A stretch of 32,000 nucleotides of DNA from Candidatus Harpocratesius repetitus. Its GTDB lineage: Archaea; Asgardarchaeota; Lokiarchaeia; Sigyniarchaeales; Promethearchaeaceae. This document shows, piece by piece, positions 2,129 to 17,243 of this stretch (the stretch's first letter is position 1; the number at the start of each line of letters is the position of its first letter). The stretch spans positions 1,590,001-1,622,000 of the forward strand of contig JAIZWK010000001.1 of the NCBI GenBank assembly GCA_021498095.1. The letters run 5' to 3'. The notes below the pieces were generated by a model. It had not been told where the DNA came from, did not search any database, and saw nothing but the letters and a program-made list of their open reading frames with translations. The position numbers and the translations under genes were made by a program.

Positions 2129-3499
2129 GTGAAAGAAGTAAAAAAACCAATTCAAAAAGAAGAAAGAAATTCTGATTATCTTTTTGGGAATTACGTAAAT
2201 CCACAAGAAACTTTGGATATCTGGGAAAATAATCAATTTACCCCTAATTTATTACAAAAAAAGAAATTACAAATTAGTAAGAACCATTTATGGTTGTCTG
2301 AGCGAATATTAGAATTATGGGTGAAATTGGAAAACATTTTCATCAAAAATACTTTGATCACAAATTATCAATTTCAAAGTCAAAGGTATTATGAAACAAG
2401 AGTTCCAAAATCTGAAGTACAAGAATATAATGAATGGAGAAAATCCCTTGATATAAAAGGACTTTTTTCAGATGAAGAAATTCAAGTCTTAGAAAATTTA
2501 TTATATTGGATTAAACGAAGAGCAGAAAATTATGGAATGGGATTAGAATATGAATTTGAAATACTTCCTTATCTAAAATCTCAAAAATTTACCAAATCTC
2601 TTTGGATTGCTTCACAATTTTTAGAAATTCAAAGATATTTAATTCGATGTTTATACTATATAACAGAACAAGATTATACAATTCAACGAGCATTTCCAGG
2701 TAAACCCGATTTTATTTGTCTTGATATTAGGGAATATCAAAAATACCTTACTCGTATTTCTATTCATCACGGTTTACGAATTCACACATTCAAACTAATT
2801 GTTGAAGGGAAAACTGAAGAAGTATTAATTCAAAAATATATTGATACTTTCTGGCATTCCTCATGGGCAAAAGTTATCAATATGAGAGGAGTAGACAATT
2901 ATTCCCCCTATGAGCAAGTTTTCAGGGAAGTAAATGATACATATTATTGGTATTTACTCGATTTTGATAACGGGCAACACGAAGAAGAATTCAAAGATAT
3001 TTCTAATAAAACATGGTTTTACCCCGATTTTATTACAGAATTCTTTACTCCTGATGAAATAATTGCTTCCCTAAATAAATTATTAATAGACAAAAATATA
3101 GAACAAGATCGGATTGATTATTTTGAACAAAGACTAAAAATCTTATTGGAAAAGCTTAAAAGGATTATATCAAATTCTAAAGAAGGCTTTGAATTAGTAA
3201 TAACAGAATTTATCTTTGATGATCAAAGTTTAAAGAAGATAATCTTTCCAAATTATTCTAAATGGAAAACTAAATTTCAATTGCTTAAGAAAGGTATCAA
3301 AAAAACTCTAAAAAATCTACTAAATAAACAACTTTCGTTATATTTAGAACCTTGTTTTATTAGAATTGTTAATAATCGCCATGTAAGAAACAAAAAATTT
3401 GATGAAAAGATGAATTCATTTCTAAAGTATTGCGATAGTTTTTTAGCGGTTAATTGGATGCAACAAGCATCAAAACAAAATAAAAAGAGCAATTCTTGA
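2129..3499 (+). CDS. TOPRIM-domain protein (OLD/nuclease-type TOPRIM), probably 5'-truncated by the IS
   Basis: Contains FKLIVEGKTEE (conserved E), VINMRGVDN and YLLDFDNG (DxD). The GTG start lies only 3 nt after the transposase stop. Confidence 0.6.
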   Translation: MKEVKKPIQKEERNSDYLFGNYVNPQETLDIWENNQFTPNLLQKKKLQISKNHLWLSERILELWVKLENIFIKNTLITNYQFQSQRYYETRVPKSEVQEYNEWRKSLDIKGLFSDEEIQVLENLLYWIKRRAENYGMGLEYEFEILPYLKSQKFTKSLWIASQFLEIQRYLIRCLYYITEQDYTIQRAFPGKPDFICLDIREYQKYLTRISIHHGLRIHTFKLIVEGKTEEVLIQKYIDTFWHSSWAKVINMRGVDNYSPYEQVFREVNDTYYWYLLDFDNGQHEEEFKDISNKTWFYPDFITEFFTPDEIIASLNKLLIDKNIEQDRIDYFEQRLKILLEKLKRIISNSKEGFELVITEFIFDDQSLKKIIFPNYSKWKTKFQLLKKGIKKTLKNLLNKQLSLYLEPCFIRIVNNRHVRNKKFDEKMNSFLKYCDSFLAVNWMQQASKQNKKSNS

Positions 3500-3556: not shown

Positions 3557-4115
3557 ATGGTGAGTTCTGATTTGAAAAAATATAAAGTTCATGAATTTTC
3601 AAAATTCAAGCTTTCAAAGAATTCAAATCAATTTCCTTTTATTGTATGCCCAAAAAAGAATGAAATTCTCTCATCTTGGATTGCGAGATTAGCAGAAGCT
3701 AACTTTTCTTCCTTCTCCTACTTTTTGAATAATTTGTATCTCACTGAGAAAGATCTTCTTCTCAAAAATGATAATCGTCCAAATTTTTCAAATGTGGACA
3801 TAAATACTCAATGTCCTCCACAAATTATAAATATTCTTTCCGAAAAAACAGGAATTAAGAAAAATGAGATAGAATTCCTAACTATGAATTCATGAGATGA
3901 GTCCATTCCATCAAAATTGAAAATAAGTTTTAAATCAAGAGTATTTGGTTCCATTCGATACTGTCCTTTATGTTTGAAAGAAGAAATTCCCTACATCAAA
4001 AAAGAATGGGCTGCTTCATTTAATACCATTTGTCAAAAGCATATGGTTTATCTCCACAATTTTTGCCCCAATCCGGAATGCAATAGACCAATATATATTT
4101 CTAAGAAAAATCATG
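3557..4115 (+). pseudogene. tniQ: TniQ/TnsD-family gene, interrupted by an in-frame TGA (3893-3895) and truncated at about 4115
   Basis: N-terminal FPFIVCPKKNEILSSWIARLAEAN and Zn-binding RYCPLCL..W....CQKH..L...CPNPEC are TniQ hallmarks. ORFs 3557..3895 and 3917..4246 are in the same frame, reading LTMNS*DESIPSKLK across the stop. Confidence 0.8.
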
Positions 4116-4357
4116 ACACTGATAATATTGAACCCTTCTCCCTTTCCGTTTATGAGTGCCATATACTCCGACGACAGCAGAGCGACATTCTGGGCACAAA
4201 ACAGGTGTTATATATAGTAATTCATCCCTTCTATCTTCGAAATTAACGTATGATGGCTCGAATAATGGAGGGTATTCCTTTTTAGGGCGTCCTACCATAG
4301 GATAACACATGATCGACACGATTTAAACATTTCCAAAATATCGGTTTGCGAACTGAC
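4101..4357 (-). mobile_element. Truncated IS: N-terminal Zn-ribbon fragment of a transposase (IS1/IS6/IS1595-like); likely start ATG 4298
   Basis: The sequence CPECRSAVVGVYGTHKRKGRRVQYYQC is the CPxC...G..QxYxC ribbon typical of these transposases. It ends right after the ribbon with no DDE core. A possible outer end lies near 4357 (GTCAGTTCGCAAA on the minus strand), unverified. Confidence 0.55.
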
Positions 4358-9567: not shown

Positions 9568-9733
9568 AAATTGTTGATCTATGGTAGATAATTTTGTTAA
9601 TCGAAAGCTTTGATACTTGAAAAGTTTTCCTAACGTTTATGATATAACATTTTAGAATTTCTTAAAAAGCTTATTTGAAGTGTGTGAAAAGCAGTGAGTA
9701 GTCAATAAATATGAAAGTGATGAAAGTATAGCA

Positions 9734-9786
9734 ATTAGAAAGTATAAAACATTTTAATTATTATCAAAACATTTTATATTTCTAAT
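9734..9786 (+). promoter_or_regulatory. Candidate ArsR operator overlapping a TATA box
   Basis: Imperfect inverted repeat ATTAGAAAGTATAAAACATTTT (9734-9755), 10-bp spacer, then AAAACATTTTATATTTCTAAT (9766-9786). TTTATA at 9773-9778 is 23-28 nt before ATG 9801. GAAAGT repeats occur at 9713, 9722 and 9738. Confidence 0.55.
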
Positions 9787-9800
9787 CTGTAAATGTTACT

Positions 9801-10148
9801 ATGGAATCTCGAATCGATGAATTTCTGAAATCTTGTAATAAATCCCAATCATCGCCGGATTTTATGGTCCAATATCAAAATTTAGCTAAAAAAATTACTC
9901 AAAGCAAGGATTTTATCCAAGAATTAAAGCGACATAGTGCTTTGGCAAATAAATATCGCCTCTTAATTTATCATCTCCTTAAAGATGGCGAACAATGCAA
10001 TTGTTCACTGGCAAGGATTTTAGGATTGTCAGAAGGGTCAATCACCCATCATATAAAGAAGTTGGAAGATGCTGGTTTGATTGTAGGCCGCAATCGGGGT
10101 CATTTTACCATTTACTATACGGCTGCTAATCTAAAAAAGAGTCTTTAA
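9801..10148 (+). CDS. arsR: ArsR/SmtB-family transcriptional regulator
   Basis: ALANKYRLLIYHLL..GEQCNCSLARILGLSEGSITHHIKKLEDAGLI is an ArsR HTH. The CNC sits where the ELCVC metal(loid) site occurs. Confidence 0.9.
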   Translation: MESRIDEFLKSCNKSQSSPDFMVQYQNLAKKITQSKDFIQELKRHSALANKYRLLIYHLLKDGEQCNCSLARILGLSEGSITHHIKKLEDAGLIVGRNRGHFTIYYTAANLKKSL

Positions 10149-10206
10149 GAATAATGGATTGAAAGAAAAGGAAATCATTTTAATTTTTTTCAAAACGTTT
10201 TAATAA

Positions 10207-10608
10207 TTGCAAAACCTATTTTTAATTATGGGAAAAGTCGGATTTATTTTGTGTGTTTGCACTGGCGATTGCCCTGGTTTTGCAAGCATGAATGTATGGG
10301 ATTTGATTAACCAAGTACGCTTAGCGTTACCGGTAGAATGGGCAATTGTTCATCCGCAGTTGTGTGAAACTGATGGTGATCGATTTACTAAGAACTTATT
10401 GGAGCTAATTCGTCAAAATCAGTTGAAATATTTCATTGCAGGATGTTCTCCAAACATGCAACGTAAATTAATCGGTACTCATTTTAAAGAAGCAGGATTA
10501 AATTTTGAGGACTGGGTTATGCCTTTAGATGTACGAAATATGACTACAGATCAAGCTTTCGATGCCATTGAATCTCAATTAGAAAAATGGGTGAAAATTG
10601 ATGATTAA
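10207..10608 (+). CDS. Stand-alone HdrA N-terminal-like Fe-S module; likely start ATG 10228
   Basis: VGFILCVC...LC...IAGCSPNMQ...FKEAGLN...LDVR parallels the HdrA N-terminus (GVFxCxC...C...AACSP...AGLN...NIRE). There is no FAD-binding part. Confidence 0.75.
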   Translation: MQNLFLIMGKVGFILCVCTGDCPGFASMNVWDLINQVRLALPVEWAIVHPQLCETDGDRFTKNLLELIRQNQLKYFIAGCSPNMQRKLIGTHFKEAGLNFEDWVMPLDVRNMTTDQAFDAIESQLEKWVKIDD

Positions 10609-10924
10609 TTCTGATAAAAATAGAATTCCAAAGCAAATTCATCGATTTATGGGCGTGGATCGAAAAGACATTGACTGGTTTCCCATAATTGATTTTAATA
10701 AATGTAATAATTGTGGTGATTGTGTTCAATTTTGCGCCCATGGTGTATTTAATATGGAAAATGGAGTATTAATTGTTCAGAATCCAAAAAATTGTGTTGT
10801 GTTCTGTCAGGCATGTTTAAAAATGTGTCCAAAAGATGCATTAATATTTCAAGAGAAAAAGAAAGTTTTAGCCCAGATTAGGCAAATAAAATCGCAACAA
10901 AAACAATCCATAGATAATTATTGA
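10598..10924 (+). CDS. 2x[4Fe-4S] ferredoxin-family protein; likely start ATG 10601
   Basis: Contains IDWFPIID..CNNCGDCVQFC and CVVFCQACLKMCP. Confidence 0.9.
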   Translation: MMINSDKNRIPKQIHRFMGVDRKDIDWFPIIDFNKCNNCGDCVQFCAHGVFNMENGVLIVQNPKNCVVFCQACLKMCPKDALIFQEKKKVLAQIRQIKSQQKQSIDNY

Positions 10925-10954
10925 TAGACTTTAGAAAATAATTTAAAATAATAT

Positions 10955-11902
10955 TTGGTGAAATATATGAATGTAAAAATTGTTTTGATTCCTTGTATGG
11001 GATGCGAAAAGAACATAGGAAAGATCGGCACTTTGGCAGCTCTTTCTTTGGAAAAATCAAAAAAATTTCCTTTCCTAAGACTTAATCCATCTATCACTCA
11101 AATTGCTGCTGGAGAATATACTTCATTTTCTCCAGAAACATTGATTATTGCACTGAATTGCTGTAACGTTCGATGTTCAACAAAGATACTAAATCAAAAG
11201 TCTATAAAACCTCACTATTTGATAAATATCTCTAAATATTTGAAGGATATTAATATTCCAAAAGGTGATTATTCAATTCATGAGTTACTTAAAGATTCTT
11301 CAGTTTCGATTATTACCGAATGCCTTTCAAACGAAATTGAAGAATATGTTATTCAATTTACACATAAACATGAAGAAAATTCAGTTATCAAAGTAAATGA
11401 ACCTTCAAATTCTAAGACTTCATTCACATTCACACCAAATTATTCTAAAATGCTCGAATTTACTTTTTCAAAATTTAAATTTCAAGTTCCCATAAATCCA
11501 AATCGACTTTTCTTTAATTGGAATGATGCATGGGCTTACTATTTGGGTGAAGGAAAAGTGGTGATTGGTATTACAGATTATCTGCAAAAAAATCTATCTG
11601 ATATTCTCATTTGTGAATTTAACGAAATAGGCACTAATATTAGTCAATTTGAAGCCGTTGCAGAGATGGAATCAAGCAAGACTGTTAATGAAGTATTAAG
11701 TCCTTTCAGTGGTAAAATAATTGCTGTAAATACTAAGTTAGAAGAAGCTCCAGAACTAATAAATGAAGATCCTTATAATAATGGATGGATAGTTGTTTTA
11801 GAATGTAATAATTTCGAAGAAGAATCATCAGAATTAATGTCTTCTGAAGAATACTTTAATTTTATGAAGGAAAAAATTGAACAAGAAGGTATTTACCAAT
11901 GA
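10955..11902 (+). CDS. Fusion of an N-terminal divergent DGC (Cys-rich) domain and a C-terminal GcvH-like lipoyl-carrier domain; likely start ATG 10967
   Basis: The N-terminus has IPCMGC...ALNCCNVRCSTK, a DGC variant. The C-terminus has IGITDY.Q..L.DI...EMESSKTV.EV.SPFSG.I..VN..LEEAPELINEDPYNNGWI, the GcvH signature, with the lipoyl Lys at codon 11678-11680. Confidence 0.85.
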   Translation: MVKYMNVKIVLIPCMGCEKNIGKIGTLAALSLEKSKKFPFLRLNPSITQIAAGEYTSFSPETLIIALNCCNVRCSTKILNQKSIKPHYLINISKYLKDINIPKGDYSIHELLKDSSVSIITECLSNEIEEYVIQFTHKHEENSVIKVNEPSNSKTSFTFTPNYSKMLEFTFSKFKFQVPINPNRLFFNWNDAWAYYLGEGKVVIGITDYLQKNLSDILICEFNEIGTNISQFEAVAEMESSKTVNEVLSPFSGKIIAVNTKLEEAPELINEDPYNNGWIVVLECNNFEEESSELMSSEEYFNFMKEKIEQEGIYQ

Positions 11903-12321
11903 ATGGAAGGAAAAAAGTGAACATTTTACCTTGTAGCGGAATAGGAAAAACCTTAGGTACGTTAAGCCGATGGACTGCATTTGAAATTGTTGAACATTTA
12001 TGTCCTAAGAAAACTCAATTATTGTGTTTAGCGCGGGCTGTAGTAGGAGATAATGAAATCCAGTCGAAGATTTTAGATAATTATAATATTACTTTAGATG
12101 GTTGCCCTAAACAATGTGCTAAAAAGAATATCGAATTAAAAGGTGGCGATGTCCAAAAGTCTTATTTAATGGCGCGATTCTTAATAAAAAATCGAGATCT
12201 CATTTATGATAAGAAAAATGTTATTGATCCTGGAGATGGCGCTTTAGAATTAGCCAAACGTATTGCACTACAAATTAGGCCAGTAATTGATAAGATTTTT
12301 GATCAAGGCGGTGCGATTTAA
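11899..12321 (+). CDS. DGC-domain (putative Zn-binding) protein
   Basis: Contains PCSG...LCLA...LDGCPKQCAKK. The start overlaps the upstream stop (ATGA). Confidence 0.9.
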   Translation: MNGRKKVNILPCSGIGKTLGTLSRWTAFEIVEHLCPKKTQLLCLARAVVGDNEIQSKILDNYNITLDGCPKQCAKKNIELKGGDVQKSYLMARFLIKNRDLIYDKKNVIDPGDGALELAKRIALQIRPVIDKIFDQGGAI

Positions 12322-12323
12322 AC

Positions 12324-12758
12324 ATGATTAAACCGAAATATGTTGGATTACTATCTTGCAGTGGAGAAGAAATACCTGAAGGAACCATTTCTCGTATTGC
12401 AACAAGGAAAGTTTTGCAGGAATTATTACCTGGACTAACTACAACTGTATGTGTGCCTTTGTTTTTGACAGGTGACGAACAAGAACGAGGTTTTGTGCTG
12501 AAATATCCATGCATTGCCATTGATGGATGTGAAAAAGCCTGTGTTACGAGAAATTTAAAATTACTCGGGAAAAAGCCATTTGCTGAAGTAAATTTATCGC
12601 AATTCTTTAATTCAGATGAACTTAAAGAAATCAAAGCCAGCAAACTTCATGATCGCTCTTGGAAAGATCATCCCTATACACAGCGTTTAGCTGAACATTT
12701 AGCTTCCTTAAGCGCTCAGAAATTGCACGAAATAAATTCATCTGAAGAAATCTTTTAA
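12324..12758 (+). CDS. DGC-domain (putative Zn-binding) protein
   Basis: Contains SCSG...TVCVP...IDGCEKAC. It starts 2 nt after the previous stop. Confidence 0.9.
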   Translation: MIKPKYVGLLSCSGEEIPEGTISRIATRKVLQELLPGLTTTVCVPLFLTGDEQERGFVLKYPCIAIDGCEKACVTRNLKLLGKKPFAEVNLSQFFNSDELKEIKASKLHDRSWKDHPYTQRLAEHLASLSAQKLHEINSSEEIF

Positions 12759-12783
12759 AATTCTTAGCCCGACATTAATAACT

Positions 12784-13464
12784 ATGGTAAATGAGATAGC
12801 AATTATTGGAGAAATTATTGGTTATGTAACTGCATTTATTATTGCTGCAGTAATCATGCGAAAAAAGCCATCTTATATTGGAAATCGGTATTTTGCAGCA
12901 AGTTTCATCCTATTCGGTACTTATTCTTTAGTAATGATGATATATGAATTTGGAATTTCAGAGATTGTTGTTCTTGTTCTTTTTTATCTTTCTTTGGTAA
13001 TATTAAATTATGCAACCGCGTTTTTTGTTATATCAATGCAGATTTTTATTTATAGCAAATCATGGTTAGAATCAAAAATCCCCAAGGTAGTTCTTGCTGG
13101 ATCTACCATTATTGCGATTATTTCTGTGGTTATGCCTGTAAAAGTAGAATCATTAGGTCCTGTACAAACAACTAAGAATTTAGTAGCACTTATTTCTATG
13201 GGAATTTGGCAGTATACATTATTAATTTATTCTCTTGTTAAAATATCGCAAGTTTTGAAAAATATTGAACAAACAAATAATTTAGTGAAGAAGAAAATCC
13301 AAAAATTATGGATCGCACAACTTATCGGTCTTATGGCGCCTACTGCTTCTGTAATTGGGAATATTTTACAAAATTATGTAATCGTTGCTTTGCTTCACAT
13401 TTTTTTGGCAAGCGCATTTATTCTTGTAGCTTTGGCTATTTTGGGTAAAAAGGATATCGAATAA
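12784..13464 (+). CDS. Integral membrane protein with about 7 TM helices and no cytoplasmic output domain
   Basis: Seven hydrophobic stretches counted by eye in 226 aa. Confidence 0.7.
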   Translation: MVNEIAIIGEIIGYVTAFIIAAVIMRKKPSYIGNRYFAASFILFGTYSLVMMIYEFGISEIVVLVLFYLSLVILNYATAFFVISMQIFIYSKSWLESKIPKVVLAGSTIIAIISVVMPVKVESLGPVQTTKNLVALISMGIWQYTLLIYSLVKISQVLKNIEQTNNLVKKKIQKLWIAQLIGLMAPTASVIGNILQNYVIVALLHIFLASAFILVALAILGKKDIE

Positions 13465-13638: not shown

Positions 13639-14964
13639 GTGAATCAGAAGATTATGCCTTCCCAAACACCTCTTCCTAAACAATATTTTTACACATTTCC
13701 GTGGCTTAATGGGAGCAGTGAAATCCTTCTTGAAGATATGGGTTTGTTATCACAATCTAATGAAGCCACTTCAGTGGTAAATATGATCAAGAAGTTGTTT
13801 ACAGAATTTCATAATTTAGATCAAGTTGAAAATGATTTAGAATATAGAATTACCGAATTTCTTAAACAATGTGCTGAATCTAAAGAGAAATTTACAACTT
13901 CCACTGATGATATTATTCATTTGGCAATGTATCCGCTTTTACAAATAATTCTATCTTTATTAGGCAATCGTATATTAGGTAATGCTATGGCAAATATCTA
14001 CGCTAAGCACTGCCAAGAAGAGTTAAGATCGCATTCAACTTCTAAACAGCATGGTTCGAGAAATAAATATAATGACTATCAGATTCAAAGTATTTGTCAT
14101 AATTTAGGCTTAGAGTGTCTAGTAACTCCAAGAAATATGATTGATCATATTATTTATCCATTTCAAATGGATTTCCAATCATATCTTTCAGTTGCTACAA
14201 AATTGACTGGAGATAGATGGAAACTGATAAATAGAATTTTCGTGAAAGGAAAAGTAAATTTAATTCGTGATGATGTAATTCTATTGCTCCGTGAGATGGT
14301 TAGAAATAAGACTAAACCAGATTATAAAGCAATAGATCCTGAATTGAAGAAGAAAATTGAAGATATACCAGAAATTAGTCAGATTCTTGAACGTGTGGAA
14401 AAAATAGTTGAACAAAACTCAAAGAAATTCACTTCTTCATTGTTTATTGCTGATGAAAAAATTGAATATGAATTATTTCCACCCTGTATGAAAATGATCT
14501 TATTTCGTGCTTCTCAAGGGGAAAATTTGTCTCACAATGAACGTTTAGCCATTGCATTTTATTTTCTAAACACAAATCACAGTATTGAAGAAACAGTTGA
14601 TATATTTAGAACCATTCCAGATTTTGATGAATCTATTGCACGATATCAAGTGGAATTTGCAGCAGGTTCAAGGGGAAAGGGGAAAAAATATAAAATGTAT
14701 AATTGCGCTAAATTACGAAGTTTTCGTCTTTGTAAAGCTGATGATCCAAAATTCGGAGATCGACTTTGTATACAAGGTGGAAAGCGAAAAGATGGCACTT
14801 TTCAACCAATCAAGAATCCAATTAATGATTATGTCTTCTGGAAAAAAGTTGAACTTCAAAGAATTCACAGAAGTCAGATTCCTACGACATTGGATGGTTC
14901 AAAAACTTCTCAAACTTCTCAAGATTCTGTATCTTCTGTACACTCTGAAAAAACTAAAAAATAG
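13639..14964 (+). CDS. priL: DNA primase large subunit
   Basis: The Fe-S domain FPPCM...GENLSHNERLAIA...PDFDESIARYQVE...Y...C..LRSF.LC is present, adjacent to priS. Confidence 0.92.
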   Translation: MNQKIMPSQTPLPKQYFYTFPWLNGSSEILLEDMGLLSQSNEATSVVNMIKKLFTEFHNLDQVENDLEYRITEFLKQCAESKEKFTTSTDDIIHLAMYPLLQIILSLLGNRILGNAMANIYAKHCQEELRSHSTSKQHGSRNKYNDYQIQSICHNLGLECLVTPRNMIDHIIYPFQMDFQSYLSVATKLTGDRWKLINRIFVKGKVNLIRDDVILLLREMVRNKTKPDYKAIDPELKKKIEDIPEISQILERVEKIVEQNSKKFTSSLFIADEKIEYELFPPCMKMILFRASQGENLSHNERLAIAFYFLNTNHSIEETVDIFRTIPDFDESIARYQVEFAAGSRGKGKKYKMYNCAKLRSFRLCKADDPKFGDRLCIQGGKRKDGTFQPIKNPINDYVFWKKVELQRIHRSQIPTTLDGSKTSQTSQDSVSSVHSEKTKK

Positions 14965-14977
14965 GGCGAGCTGTTCG

Positions 14978-16252
14978 ATGAATTTAACCCAATATTATCT
15001 ATATAAACTATTTCAAGCATATTATAAGGCTCATCTGAAGAATTATCCCACTATCAGTGATTTACCAAATAGAGAATTTGCCTTTATACGTTGGGATCAT
15101 CCTGGAATGCAACGTCATATTGGATATCCAAATTCTAACTTTTTATTGGATTATTTGGTAAAATATGCTCCACGACACAGTTATCGGAGTGCAACTATCT
15201 ATTCAACTCCATCAGCAGATAAAATGGAGCATAAAGGTTATTTAGGTTGTGATTTTGTCGTCGATATCGATTCTGATCACATTCCTACTTCTTGTCAACA
15301 TCGTCATAACTATGTCATTTGTAAAAATTGCGGAAAACTTCTCTTGGGAGATAAACCAGAAGAGTGTCCTGACTGCCATAGTAAAAAATTTAAAAAAATT
15401 GTCTGGATTTGCGATGAATGCTTAAATGTTTCAAAAGAACAAGTGCATCATTTGATTGATGGATTTTTATTAAAGGATTTTAATATTCCCCTTTCTGCTA
15501 TCAAATTGAATTTTTCTGGTCATCGAGGATATCATGTACGTATTGAATCTAAAGTTTTTCGCTCGCTTGATCAAGAAGAACGTCGTGAAATTGCAGATTA
15601 CGTTACAGGTCAAGGTTTTTCTTATAATATATGGAATTATAAGCCTGTTCAATCCAATATGTCTGGATTCCGTATTGATCAACCTGGTTGGCCAGGTAAG
15701 ATTGCTCGTGAGTTCTATAAAGTTCTTTCTCAAGGGAGTGATTATACTGAAAATATTTTTTCAAATCCTCGATATGGGAATCCTATTCGTTCTAATGTTT
15801 TAAGGATTTTAATTGAACGAAGAATAGATCTCATTAGAAAGCTTGAAAATAAAAACCCCATTTGGGGAATTCCTCATGTTGGACCTACTACATGGCATCG
15901 TATATTTGAAATTTTGCGAGATTTAATTAAAGCTGATATAGATGTAGTTGTTTCTATTGATGTTCATCGATTAATTCGTTTGGAAGGTTCAATTCATGGA
16001 AAAGCAGGGTTAAAGGTAGTTGATGTTCCTTATGAAAAATTGGATGAGTTTGATCCATTGACTGATGCATTGACCTTTCCAAAAGAGAGTACAAATAAAC
16101 TAACAATTAAGATTACTGCTCCTATCTGCCCTCCAATTCGAATAGGGAAAATAACATATGATAATTTTCAACCTGATGAAGAATATACTGTTCCCCTAAA
16201 TGTCGGATTGTTTTTACTTTGTAAAGATGTTGCGGAATTAATAAAAAACTAA
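14978..16252 (+). CDS. priS: DNA primase small (catalytic) subunit; start taken as ATG 14978 rather than the track's 14585, which overlaps priL
   Basis: Contains FVVDIDSDH (DxD), FSGHRGYHV and SIDVHRLIRLEGSIHGK, plus a Cys-rich Zn insert. Confidence 0.93.
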   Translation: MNLTQYYLYKLFQAYYKAHLKNYPTISDLPNREFAFIRWDHPGMQRHIGYPNSNFLLDYLVKYAPRHSYRSATIYSTPSADKMEHKGYLGCDFVVDIDSDHIPTSCQHRHNYVICKNCGKLLLGDKPEECPDCHSKKFKKIVWICDECLNVSKEQVHHLIDGFLLKDFNIPLSAIKLNFSGHRGYHVRIESKVFRSLDQEERREIADYVTGQGFSYNIWNYKPVQSNMSGFRIDQPGWPGKIAREFYKVLSQGSDYTENIFSNPRYGNPIRSNVLRILIERRIDLIRKLENKNPIWGIPHVGPTTWHRIFEILRDLIKADIDVVVSIDVHRLIRLEGSIHGKAGLKVVDVPYEKLDEFDPLTDALTFPKESTNKLTIKITAPICPPIRIGKITYDNFQPDEEYTVPLNVGLFLLCKDVAELIKN

Positions 16253-16367
16253 TAAAAATTGGCGAATTTAACCTATATTATAATTTATTCACCATTTACA
16301 AATTAATTTCAATACAGATCTTTAACACCTAAAGAAAATTGTATGTATTAAAATTGAAGAAATCAGG

Positions 16368-17243
16368 ATGAAAGAAATGGATGCCTTTACCCAAGAAAAA
16401 ATCTATACTAATTTACTTCGAATTTGGGAACGCGTGCATTCAAGCAAAAAAATAATAAAAATCAACAAAAAAGAAGAGTTTCTCTCTGGTATTCGAGAGT
16501 TGGGTAAAGCACTTATAAAACAATTAAGCGAAACTAAGAATTTCACAATACAATTAATCATTCAGAAAACTATAGATAATATCCGCTATATGGTGGCAGA
16601 TATTCTGGAAATACGTGCAGAAAAAATAACAAATTCTGCAAAAACTAATGAATTTGTGGAAGAATCACTCTTATTTCCATTTGAATTGCAATTTTATCAT
16701 CAATTACAACCTTCATTTCGTGGTTTTTTAAAATCAAAACAACAAATTCTTCAATCCTTTAATTTCAATGAAATTTTCTCGCCAAATAAATTGAAAGATT
16801 TTAAGGATAGTTCTCAAGATTTTGAAAATGATAATTTTATCCCAAATTATGAAGATGACTCGTTTATTGATTCAACAGAATCTATTTCTGAAGATATTAA
16901 TTCTTCACAATATTCTGTAAATAAGTCTGAATCAAACGATAATTCAATATCAAATAATAATTCATCAGATTCACTTCAAAAAGAGCAAAAATATTCTTAC
17001 GACACACAAATACTATCTTCCACCAAAGAATCTTCAAAAGACTTCCTTAAATCCGCTAGAGCTAAGTCAAAAATCCATTATCAAACGATTATTTCTAATT
17101 CTGAAATTTCCCCTTTTGTTGGTCAAGATCTTATTATTTATGGACCTTTAACAAAGGGTGAAATTGCTAGTATTCCTGAAAAAAATGCTCAGATTTTTCA
17201 AGGAGAAAATATGATCAAGCTTATTAGATCAAATCACAAATGA
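16368..17243 (+). CDS. gins51: GINS complex subunit (Gins51/GinS-type) with a long low-complexity linker
   Basis: Lies directly after priS, a conserved archaeal linkage. It has a helical N-terminal A domain and a C-terminal B domain with PFVGQD..IYGPLTKGEIASIPEKNA. Confidence 0.7.
   Translation: MKEMDAFTQEKIYTNLLRIWERVHSSKKIIKINKKEEFLSGIRELGKALIKQLSETKNFTIQLIIQKTIDNIRYMVADILEIRAEKITNSAKTNEFVEESLLFPFELQFYHQLQPSFRGFLKSKQQILQSFNFNEIFSPNKLKDFKDSSQDFENDNFIPNYEDDSFIDSTESISEDINSSQYSVNKSESNDNSISNNNSSDSLQKEQKYSYDTQILSSTKESSKDFLKSARAKSKIHYQTIISNSEISPFVGQDLIIYGPLTKGEIASIPEKNAQIFQGENMIKLIRSNHK

Follow-up and report, generated by a model that had tools for sequence, protein, structure and literature searches.

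Protein-bound lipoate is known from the 2-oxoacid dehydrogenases, glycine cleavage, acetoin dehydrogenase, the sHdr-LbpA system, and a few lipoyl-dependent peroxidase relays (Lpd-SucB-AhpD-AhpC of M. tuberculosis, and Ohr/OsmC). Lipoic acid is also a classic cellular target of arsenite, and trivalent arsenic, As(III), forms complexes with vicinal dithiols, dihydrolipoamide among them, and with three-Cys sites of the kind present in ArsR and ArsD (in the As(III) metallochaperone ArsD the site is Cys12-Cys13-Cys18). The DGC domain (PF08859) canonically carries four conserved cysteines (C-x-G ... C ... D-G-C-x3-C) that are thought to bind zinc, and to our knowledge no function or structure has been described for this family. 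Here we describe an open reading frame (ORF) that joins a DGC domain to an H-protein domain of the GcvH type. It lies in a stretch of 32,000 nucleotides, called the window below, from the Asgard archaeon Candidatus Harpocratesius repetitus (GenBank assembly GCA_021498095.1, contig JAIZWK010000001.1, positions 1,590,001 to 1,622,000 of the forward strand).

Several published systems provide a frame for this protein. Two reports on sHdr-LbpA sulfur oxidation describe a GcvH-like lipoate-binding protein together with HdrA/HdrC-like modules, an ArsR-type regulator, and the lipoylation proteins LplA/LipS1/LipS2 (Cao et al. 2018, PMC6067878; PMC12423496). In S. aureus, the H-like protein GcvH-L guards the cell against oxidative stress (PMC12440151). 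Finally, a DGC (PF08859) gene is part of the ArsR-ArsP-ArsE ars operon of P. mercurii (10.1101/2022.10.17.512643), and this was the only mention of PF08859 that we found in the searchable literature. Neither the fusion nor the gene cassette presented below was described there, as judged by searches for the DGC domain, PF08859 or COG4273, for lipoyl in combination with ars, and for Asgard in combination with arsenic.

The fusion is the central subunit of a conserved gene cassette

We found that the fusion is the central subunit of a conserved cassette with the gene order ArsR, HdrA-N-like iron-sulfur (Fe-S) protein, 2x[4Fe-4S] ferredoxin, DGC-GcvH, DGC, DGC (Table 1). The survey behind this comprised 26 fusion-bearing loci (that of the window, two from bacteria, and the others from various Asgard families), with ORFs called per locus and classified with profiles built in this analysis. 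The five-gene core, from the HdrA-N-like protein to the last DGC, had the same order in essentially all 26 loci, and an ArsR-family gene was adjacent in 20 of them. The HdrA-N-like protein, with five conserved cysteines, was highly conserved in 20 of the 26 loci and always lay immediately 5' of the ferredoxin; in a phmmer search of the PDB the window's copy matched residues 8-94 of HdrA (7bkb_A, E 4.5e-4). The second motif of the ferredoxin has an unusual Cx3Cx2Cx3CP spacing, and the start of DGC paralogue 2 overlaps the stop of the fusion. All three DGC domains of the genome are at this locus. Since the three DGC positions correspond to distinct paralogue families, each separately conserved, the three proteins probably have specialised, heteromeric roles.

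The preliminary description of this DNA had claimed a DGC domain and a complete H-protein in a single ORF, and both were recovered with Pfam. The DGC profile aligned with residues 11-95 (E 9e-10; 39 bits with a cut-off of 27) and the GCV_H profile (PF01597) with residues 190-306 (E 1.2e-33; 116 bits with a cut-off of 22.2), and the score for the NCBIfam GcvH model (PRK01202) was barely over its cut-off (117.8 bits, with 117 needed). Because homologues begin at the position of ATG 10967 (MNVKIV...), translation probably does not start from the TTG at 10955. The lipoylation motif ESSK had been noted as intact with its Lys codon at 11678-11680, and this residue, K242, is indeed kept: both E239 and K242 of the E-S-x-K motif are invariant in all 32 fusions that were aligned.

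A full-length AlphaFold model built on 32 fusions had a mean pLDDT (predicted local distance difference test) of 92 and a pTM (predicted template modelling score) of 0.60, the latter leaving the packing of the domains uncertain. It consists of two confident domains joined by low-confidence residues 146-164 (pLDDT <50 at residues 146-152; 10-residue block means of 52 and 73 for residues 141-160). These residues form the linker that had earlier been called Ser/Thr-rich; the linker is present, but is only moderately Ser/Thr-rich (7 of 19 residues). The model of the H domain was matched by Foldseek to the bovine and Thermus H-proteins with template modelling (TM) scores of 0.91-0.93 and a root-mean-square deviation (rmsd) of 1.0-1.7 (for 3klr, TM 0.93 and rmsd 1.0). 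Modelled alone, the fused DGC domain reached a pLDDT of 94 and a pTM of 0.88, with an alpha/beta fold and a long helix at its end. No solved relative of the DGC domain was found in the PDB by sequence or by profile, and Foldseek gave no PDB match to its model at E <= 1e-3. In the wide VIA search the best match (Z 7.7) was 3pu6_A, an uncharacterised Wolinella protein, which is below the telling level, and the other matches were generic flavodoxin-like and P-loop folds. An hhalign comparison of the DGC and HdrA-N-like profiles (probability 14%) aligned their Cys-bearing strand ends and did not support homology. Complex prediction for the H domain with the three DGC domains scored 0.00 and was run without controls, so that it speaks neither for nor against an interaction.

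Table 1. Positions of the cassette features, numbered from the first letter of the window.
Feature	Position	Strand	Evidence or remark
Box 1, 27 nt, CATTTTAATTATTATCAAAACATTTTA	9750..9776	+	Ends 25 nt before arsR ATG
ArsR/SmtB-family repressor, CxC (E-Q-C-N-C) in DNA-recognition region, plus N-terminal Cys	9801..10148	+	Pfam HTH_5, E 1.5e-12
Box 2, 27 nt, CATTTTAATTTTTTTCAAAACGTTTTA	10176..10202	+	Before first structural gene
HdrA-N-terminal-like Fe-S protein, free-standing, 133 aa, CxCx3C...C...GCSP	10207..10608	+	Likely start ATG 10228
Ferredoxin, two [4Fe-4S] motifs	10598..10924	+	Pfam Fer4 families; orthologue alignment
DGC-GcvH fusion ORF	10955-11902	+	Single open frame, 315 aa
DGC domain of fusion	10955..11389 (residues 1-145)	+	Pfam DGC; AlphaFold; Cys conservation
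C14 codon	10994-10996	+	Fused DGC domain
C17 codon	11003-11005	+	Fused DGC domain
C69 codon	11159-11161	+	Fused DGC domain
C70 codon	11162-11164	+	Fused DGC domain
C74 codon	11174-11176	+	Fused DGC domain
Linker, flexible	11390..11446 (residues 146-164)	+	AlphaFold pLDDT
H-protein (lipoyl carrier) domain with extra N-terminal beta-hairpin	11447..11902	+	Pfam GCV_H; Foldseek
Lipoyl Lys242 codon	11678-11680	+	ESSK motif
DGC paralogue 2 (PCSGIGK type), four invariant Cys	11899..12321	+	Pfam DGC, 49 bits; 21 orthologues
DGC paralogue 3 (CSGE type), four invariant Cys	12324..12758	+	Pfam DGC, 50 bits; 21 orthologues
Hydrophobic, probably membrane, protein, 226 aa	12784..13464	+	25 nt downstream

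The fusion is widespread

A word-indexed search returned 10 full-length relatives, each with both Pfam domains, and an exhaustive profile search returned about 30 clusters at 50% identity in which the profile was matched end to end. Including the genome loci, 53 distinct full-length DGC-GcvH fusions were collected. Of 201 sampled genomes from the phylum of the window (Asgard), 56 had DGC domains, and at least 27 of these had a DGC match in a frame of 280-340 aa adjoined by two free DGC genes; three additional fusions were present among further Asgard loci. Four Asgard loci were excluded from the counts since crude ORF calling missed a DGC gene that the earlier genome scan had found. Bacterial carriers included a Deferrimicrobium metagenome-assembled genome (MAG), an uncultured MAG labelled Christensenella, and an Actinomycetes MAG, and a Bacillota fusion cluster in the ESM Atlas has 56 members. 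In public records such fusions are named GcvH ('glycine cleavage system protein GcvH'), 'putative zinc-binding protein' or hypothetical.

A mis-join of the assembly, or two genes read through, would also produce a single frame of this kind. We rejected this explanation, which is vanishingly improbable given the 53 distinct fusions from many assemblies and a 17.6-kb contig, obtained from another sample in a separate study, that spans positions 9700-12800 whole, with 205 substitutions and no indel. In addition, the host genome is a single 4.36-Mb contig, and both domains as well as the intervening hairpin were modelled with high confidence. The fusion is therefore far beyond chance and not an artefact, and the search of domain architectures makes clear that it is not unique to this assembly.

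The fusions fall into types that differ in the cysteines of the DGC domain (see below). Two fusions of the four-Cys type, from Deferrimicrobium (L010:8001-8885) and from an Asgard genome (L032:9590-10471), are 61% identical over their full length, which suggests that the cassette may have been transferred between two domains of life. The window fusion is only ~31-36% identical to fusions of the four-Cys type. Since fused and unfused forms interleave in a poorly resolved tree of the H domain (162 rows, 152 columns), the number of fusion events cannot be stated.

A probable second lipoyl carrier, linked to DGC domains

The same genome has a housekeeping gcvT-gcvH-gcvPA-gcvPB operon ~394 kb from the fusion, whose GcvH shares 36% identity with the fused H domain. 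The genome also encodes lipoylation machinery in a LipS2-LplA-LipS1 operon and a lipoamide dehydrogenase above the curated cut-off, and in three related loci lipoate ligase genes are beside the cassette. One could still regard the fusion as an ordinary glycine-cleavage H protein that has acquired a structural zinc-binding domain, in keeping with its complete GCV_H domain, H-protein fold and lipoyl Lys, with the NCBIfam GcvH cut-off that is just reached, and with the GcvH name given to such fusions in public records. We consider this very unlikely. The position of the canonical gcvH in its own operon contradicts it, no gcvT or gcvP was present among the Pfam-scanned neighbours of the 26 cassette loci, and the cassette partners are invariably Fe-S and DGC proteins. 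Judged by sequence and gene context, the fusion appears to be a second, specialised lipoyl carrier and not the glycine-cleavage H protein. That it is a lipoylatable member of an ArsR-linked Fe-S/DGC cassette appears highly probable.

Rosetta-stone logic gives good support for a functional coupling between DGC domains and lipoyl carriers. The predicted link does not depend on the fusion, because adjacent unfused arrangements exist: one locus (L063) has the order DGC-DGC-GcvH-like-DGC-DGC-ferredoxin, and unfused DGC-DGC-GcvH-like triads are present in other Asgard genomes. As a separate observation, the unfused DGC-DGC-GcvH-like genes (GcvH-like proteins of 159-165 aa) in the Asgard loci L066, L070 and L073-L075 are flanked by a gene for an unknown protein of 130-150 aa and form a second type of cassette, without a fusion. 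We also came across a metagenomic protein of 1391 aa (P0037) in which three tandem GcvH domains are fused to a FAD oxidase resembling GlcD and to a CCG Fe-S protein of the HdrD/GlpC type, a further example of lipoyl arms wired to heterodisulfide-reductase-like modules.

Three fixed cysteines in the fused DGC domain

The N-terminal part of the fusion reads P-C14-M-G-C17-E-K ... N-C69-C70-N-V-R-C74. In both free DGC neighbours the cysteines are C12, C43 at the centre, and the pair in D-G-C69-x3-C73, and none of them varies among 21 orthologues of each protein; the neighbours thus carry the four canonical cysteines, which the fused domain does not. In the latter the central Cys is absent and D-G-C is replaced by N-C-C, with C14, C70 and C74 kept. 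The alignments thereby bear out the earlier reading of CMGC...NCCNVRC and of a missing central Cys that both neighbours retain. The profile match is clear, and so is the alignment of the Cys positions; for this reason we classify the fused domain as a DGC domain, in a three-Cys variant.

The rewired set of cysteines had been presented as a property of this gene. It is real but not peculiar to the window, as the variation runs through the whole family. C14, C70 and C74 are invariant in 53 of 53 fused DGC domains, and the position of the fourth Cys differs between clades. One fusion clade, bacteria included, retains the canonical central Cys (PCNGLDK ... ICPV ... DGC). Two whole clades have lost it: that of the window, and a further Asgard clade in which a Cys is often present at position 66 instead. 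Within the window's clade, a sub-clade of seven proteins closely related to the window's fusion has gained C17 (two of the seven have Promethearchaeia names), and C69 occurs only in the window protein and one other (P0002). Position 18 is nearly constantly acidic. Three fixed thiolates with a movable fourth ligand would fit the coordination of a metal or a cluster in which one ligand can be exchanged, or the three-coordinate binding of As(III).

An ArsR gene with a duplicated upstream box

The ArsR genes linked to the cassette share a CxC motif at one alignment column in 25 of 26 cases (the 26th is a doubtful ArsR call). We take this column to be the position of the As(III) site in R773 ArsR. 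In the window, a 27-nt box is present upstream of arsR and again upstream of the first structural gene. Allowing up to 3 mismatches, the 4.36-Mb genome contains two copies of the 27-mer, both at this locus. The palindromic core, TCAAAAYRTTTTA, recurs in three relatives with protein identities of only 51-63% (L012, L014 and L048; one or two mismatches in two of them), where it again precedes both arsR and the HdrA-N-like gene, ~36 nt from the start codon. Elsewhere in the genome the 17-nt core has only two matches, which we take to be chance because both are inside coding frames. The duplicated box is therefore probably the operator to which the local ArsR binds, and would overlap the promoters. 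The genome has a separate pair, a divergent arsR (160 aa, CxC) and acr3 at C1:2,065,400-2,067,100 (L052), without the 27-nt box of the cassette, and for that reason it has two independent ArsR-controlled loci.

Arsenic context of the cassette

A gene for an arsenite efflux transporter of the ACR3 family was present within 7 kb in 14 of the 26 cassette loci, and 9 of the 10 members tested passed the curated cut-off of NCBIfam TIGR00832. With one or two copies per genome of 3-4 Mb, such proximity would be expected by chance in <1% of cases (simple arithmetic). Also in 14 of 26 loci there was a gene for a CxC protein of ~94 aa, often in the order ArsR-CxC94-DGC, that is absent from the window. 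This family, with its CxC after the first strand, had no match in Pfam or NCBIfam; members are L033:11018-11311, L045:9002-9298, L012:10150-10431 and 12 others. Local profiles and clustering found no further recurrent neighbour families in the 26 loci beyond those named in this text. At other Asgard loci, DGC genes are located beside ArsR or ACR3 without GcvH. The preliminary description had seen in the fusion itself the first functional handle on the DGC family; the ArsR, Fe-S and ACR3 context is a stronger one. Outside these loci, the ESM Atlas contains an architecture from Actinomycetota with a DtxR C-terminal domain, FeoA and DGC (346 aa, 62 members), which fits a possible metal-binding or metal-sensing role for DGC.

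Several points weigh against an arsenic function. The cassette loci are related to each other and their counts are not independent, 12 of the 26 have no ACR3 nearby, and in the window's own genome ACR3 is unlinked, ~465 kb away with its own divergent ArsR. Moreover, ArsR/SmtB sensors of the CxC type respond also to Cd, Pb and Zn, so As(III) is not established as the inducer. A look for RNA runs that contain the locus returned none. We know of no structure or cofactor for DGC domains, and by sequence Zn, Fe-S and As(III) look alike as occupants of the fused site. The genome also contains three LMWP-family genes, possible arsenate reductases, and no Grx-type ArsC was found in it. The idea that the cassette stands in for a missing arsenate reductase is unsupported in view of these three genes, and because they could supply arsenate reduction, the cassette need not do so.

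A different redox function would account for part of the same genes. The cassette could be a sulfane-sulfur/heterodisulfide system akin to sHdr-LbpA, in which the lipoyl arm would carry or oxidise sulfur, the DGC domains would act as sulfur carriers of the DsrE/TusA type, and ArsR would be a persulfide sensor. The parts list is shared (a GcvH-like lipoate-binding protein, HdrA-/HdrC-like Fe-S modules, an ArsR-type regulator, LplA and LipS1/LipS2), and the weak resemblance of the DGC fold to small alpha/beta proteins is compatible with it. This explanation nevertheless appears unlikely. The scanned cassette genes of the window gave only HTH_5, Fer4, DGC and GCV_H. Neither this cassette nor the recurrent neighbour families of the 26 loci include an HdrB/CCG subunit, a flavin part of HdrA (the match ends at residue 94), TusA, DsrE or a rhodanese. 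The recurrent neighbour is ACR3 instead, and the ArsRs have their CxC at the column that we take for the As(III) site of R773 ArsR.

A general thiol or peroxide stress relay, in which a lipoyl-dependent chain of reductases would supply peroxiredoxin- or OsmC-type enzymes and arsenic would be one of several inducers, is also conceivable and rather unlikely. AhpC/TSA-like redoxins were near the cassette in 3 loci, and the peroxidase relays and the protective GcvH-L mentioned in the opening paragraphs provide precedents. Against this, neither the window cassette nor most of the 26 loci contain a peroxidase gene, and the companions seen most often, by a wide margin, are ArsR and ACR3.

Genes flanking the cassette in the window

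The 226-aa hydrophobic protein downstream of the last DGC gene had no match in Pfam or NCBIfam. Its gene may share the transcript of the cassette, but was not conserved at this place in other loci and is a doubtful member. Directly after the cassette follows a row of priL, priS and a GINS51-like gene (13639-17243), in which the listed frame of priS overlaps priL by ~380 nt and the true start is probably further downstream. Two adjacent small ORFs (3557-3895 and 3917-4246) correspond to N-terminal and C-terminal parts of TniQ and look like a split or decayed tniQ. A 456-aa protein (2129-3499) has a weak OLD-like TOPRIM match (E 1.3e-4, just below the cut-off) and may be related to defence.

A proposed working of the cassette

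Altogether, we think that the cassette probably serves metalloid handling. Whether it does so as a relay in which electrons from ferredoxin maintain a tethered lipoyl arm in the reduced state, for use in an arsenic response, we judge to be evenly poised, and the specific chemistry outlined here is tentative. In this proposal, the local CxC ArsR would occupy the palindromic box before its own gene and before the operon, and would let go on binding As(III) or a similar thiophilic species. LplA, LipS1 and LipS2 of the genome would lipoylate K242; the motif and the machinery are both present. Low-potential electrons would enter via the ferredoxin and the HdrA-N-like protein and would be passed to the cysteine clusters in the three DGC domains; these clusters may be metal or Fe-S sites at the strand ends of the alpha/beta fold and would hold the tethered lipoyl arm as a dithiol. 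More speculatively, the dihydrolipoyl arm and the three-Cys site of the fused DGC domain might bind or reduce arsenic species, and the arm might pass As(III) on towards the ACR3 pump. The direct action on the lipoyl arm that had been suggested earlier was thiol-disulfide or metal exchange; at the DGC Cys cluster these two cannot be told apart from sequence alone.

If the proposal is correct, DGC would represent a new type of domain that handles metalloids or acts as an Fe-S disulfide reductase, with the fused three-Cys DGC as docking and As(III) site for the lipoyl arm. It is possible, though we would not yet call it likely, that Asgard archaea and many anaerobic bacteria deliberately use lipoic acid in an arsenic machine, with electrons passing from ferredoxin through the HdrA-like protein and DGC to the arm. 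The combination of a fusion, conserved Fe-S partners and arsenic-type regulation makes for a testable hypothesis, both for DGC and for lipoate, with a scope of at least 27 of the 201 sampled Asgard genomes and several anaerobic bacterial groups. Should the arsenic link hold, the cassette would be an unrecognised component of arsenic resistance in anoxic sediments, and the public names 'GcvH' and 'putative zinc-binding protein' would be misleading. What the window adds is the family-wide pattern of three invariant cysteines and a varying fourth in the fused DGC, a duplicated putative operator box, and an example of a genome where cassette and ACR3 are not linked.

Comparison with known systems

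With GcvH proper, the fusion shares the fold, the retained E-S-x-K motif and, with the genome's own copy, 36% sequence identity. It differs in its extra N-terminal hairpin and its fused DGC domain, and in that gcvT and gcvP are not beside it in the loci scanned, the housekeeping copy being elsewhere.

The resemblance to sHdr-LbpA lies in a GcvH-like carrier outside glycine cleavage and in the genes that go with it, for HdrA- and HdrC-like modules, lipoylation proteins and a regulator of the ArsR type. Instead of HdrB, the flavin domain and sulfur transferases, however, the cassette has three DGC domains, one of them fused to the carrier, and its recurrent neighbour is ACR3 and not a set of sulfur-oxidation genes.

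In the lipoyl thiol relays (Lpd-SucB-AhpD-AhpC, Ohr/OsmC, and the Firmicutes GcvH-L, PDB 5a35), a protein-bound dihydrolipoyl arm serves, as proposed here, as reductant or protective thiol and is not a carrier of acyl or aminomethyl groups. Their electrons come from NADH via Lpd, whereas those of the cassette would probably come from ferredoxin, and the cassette has DGC domains as partners and no peroxidase.

Finally, the cassette resembles ars operons in its ArsR with CxC and in the ACR3 next door in relatives, and differs from them in that it has no ArsA; we know of no described ars operon with Fe-S electron carriers and a lipoyl arm. DGC is related to ArsD neither in sequence nor in fold, but it is similarly a small thiol-rich protein with three conserved cysteines, and the window's CC followed by C recalls the Cys12-Cys13-Cys18 of ArsD.

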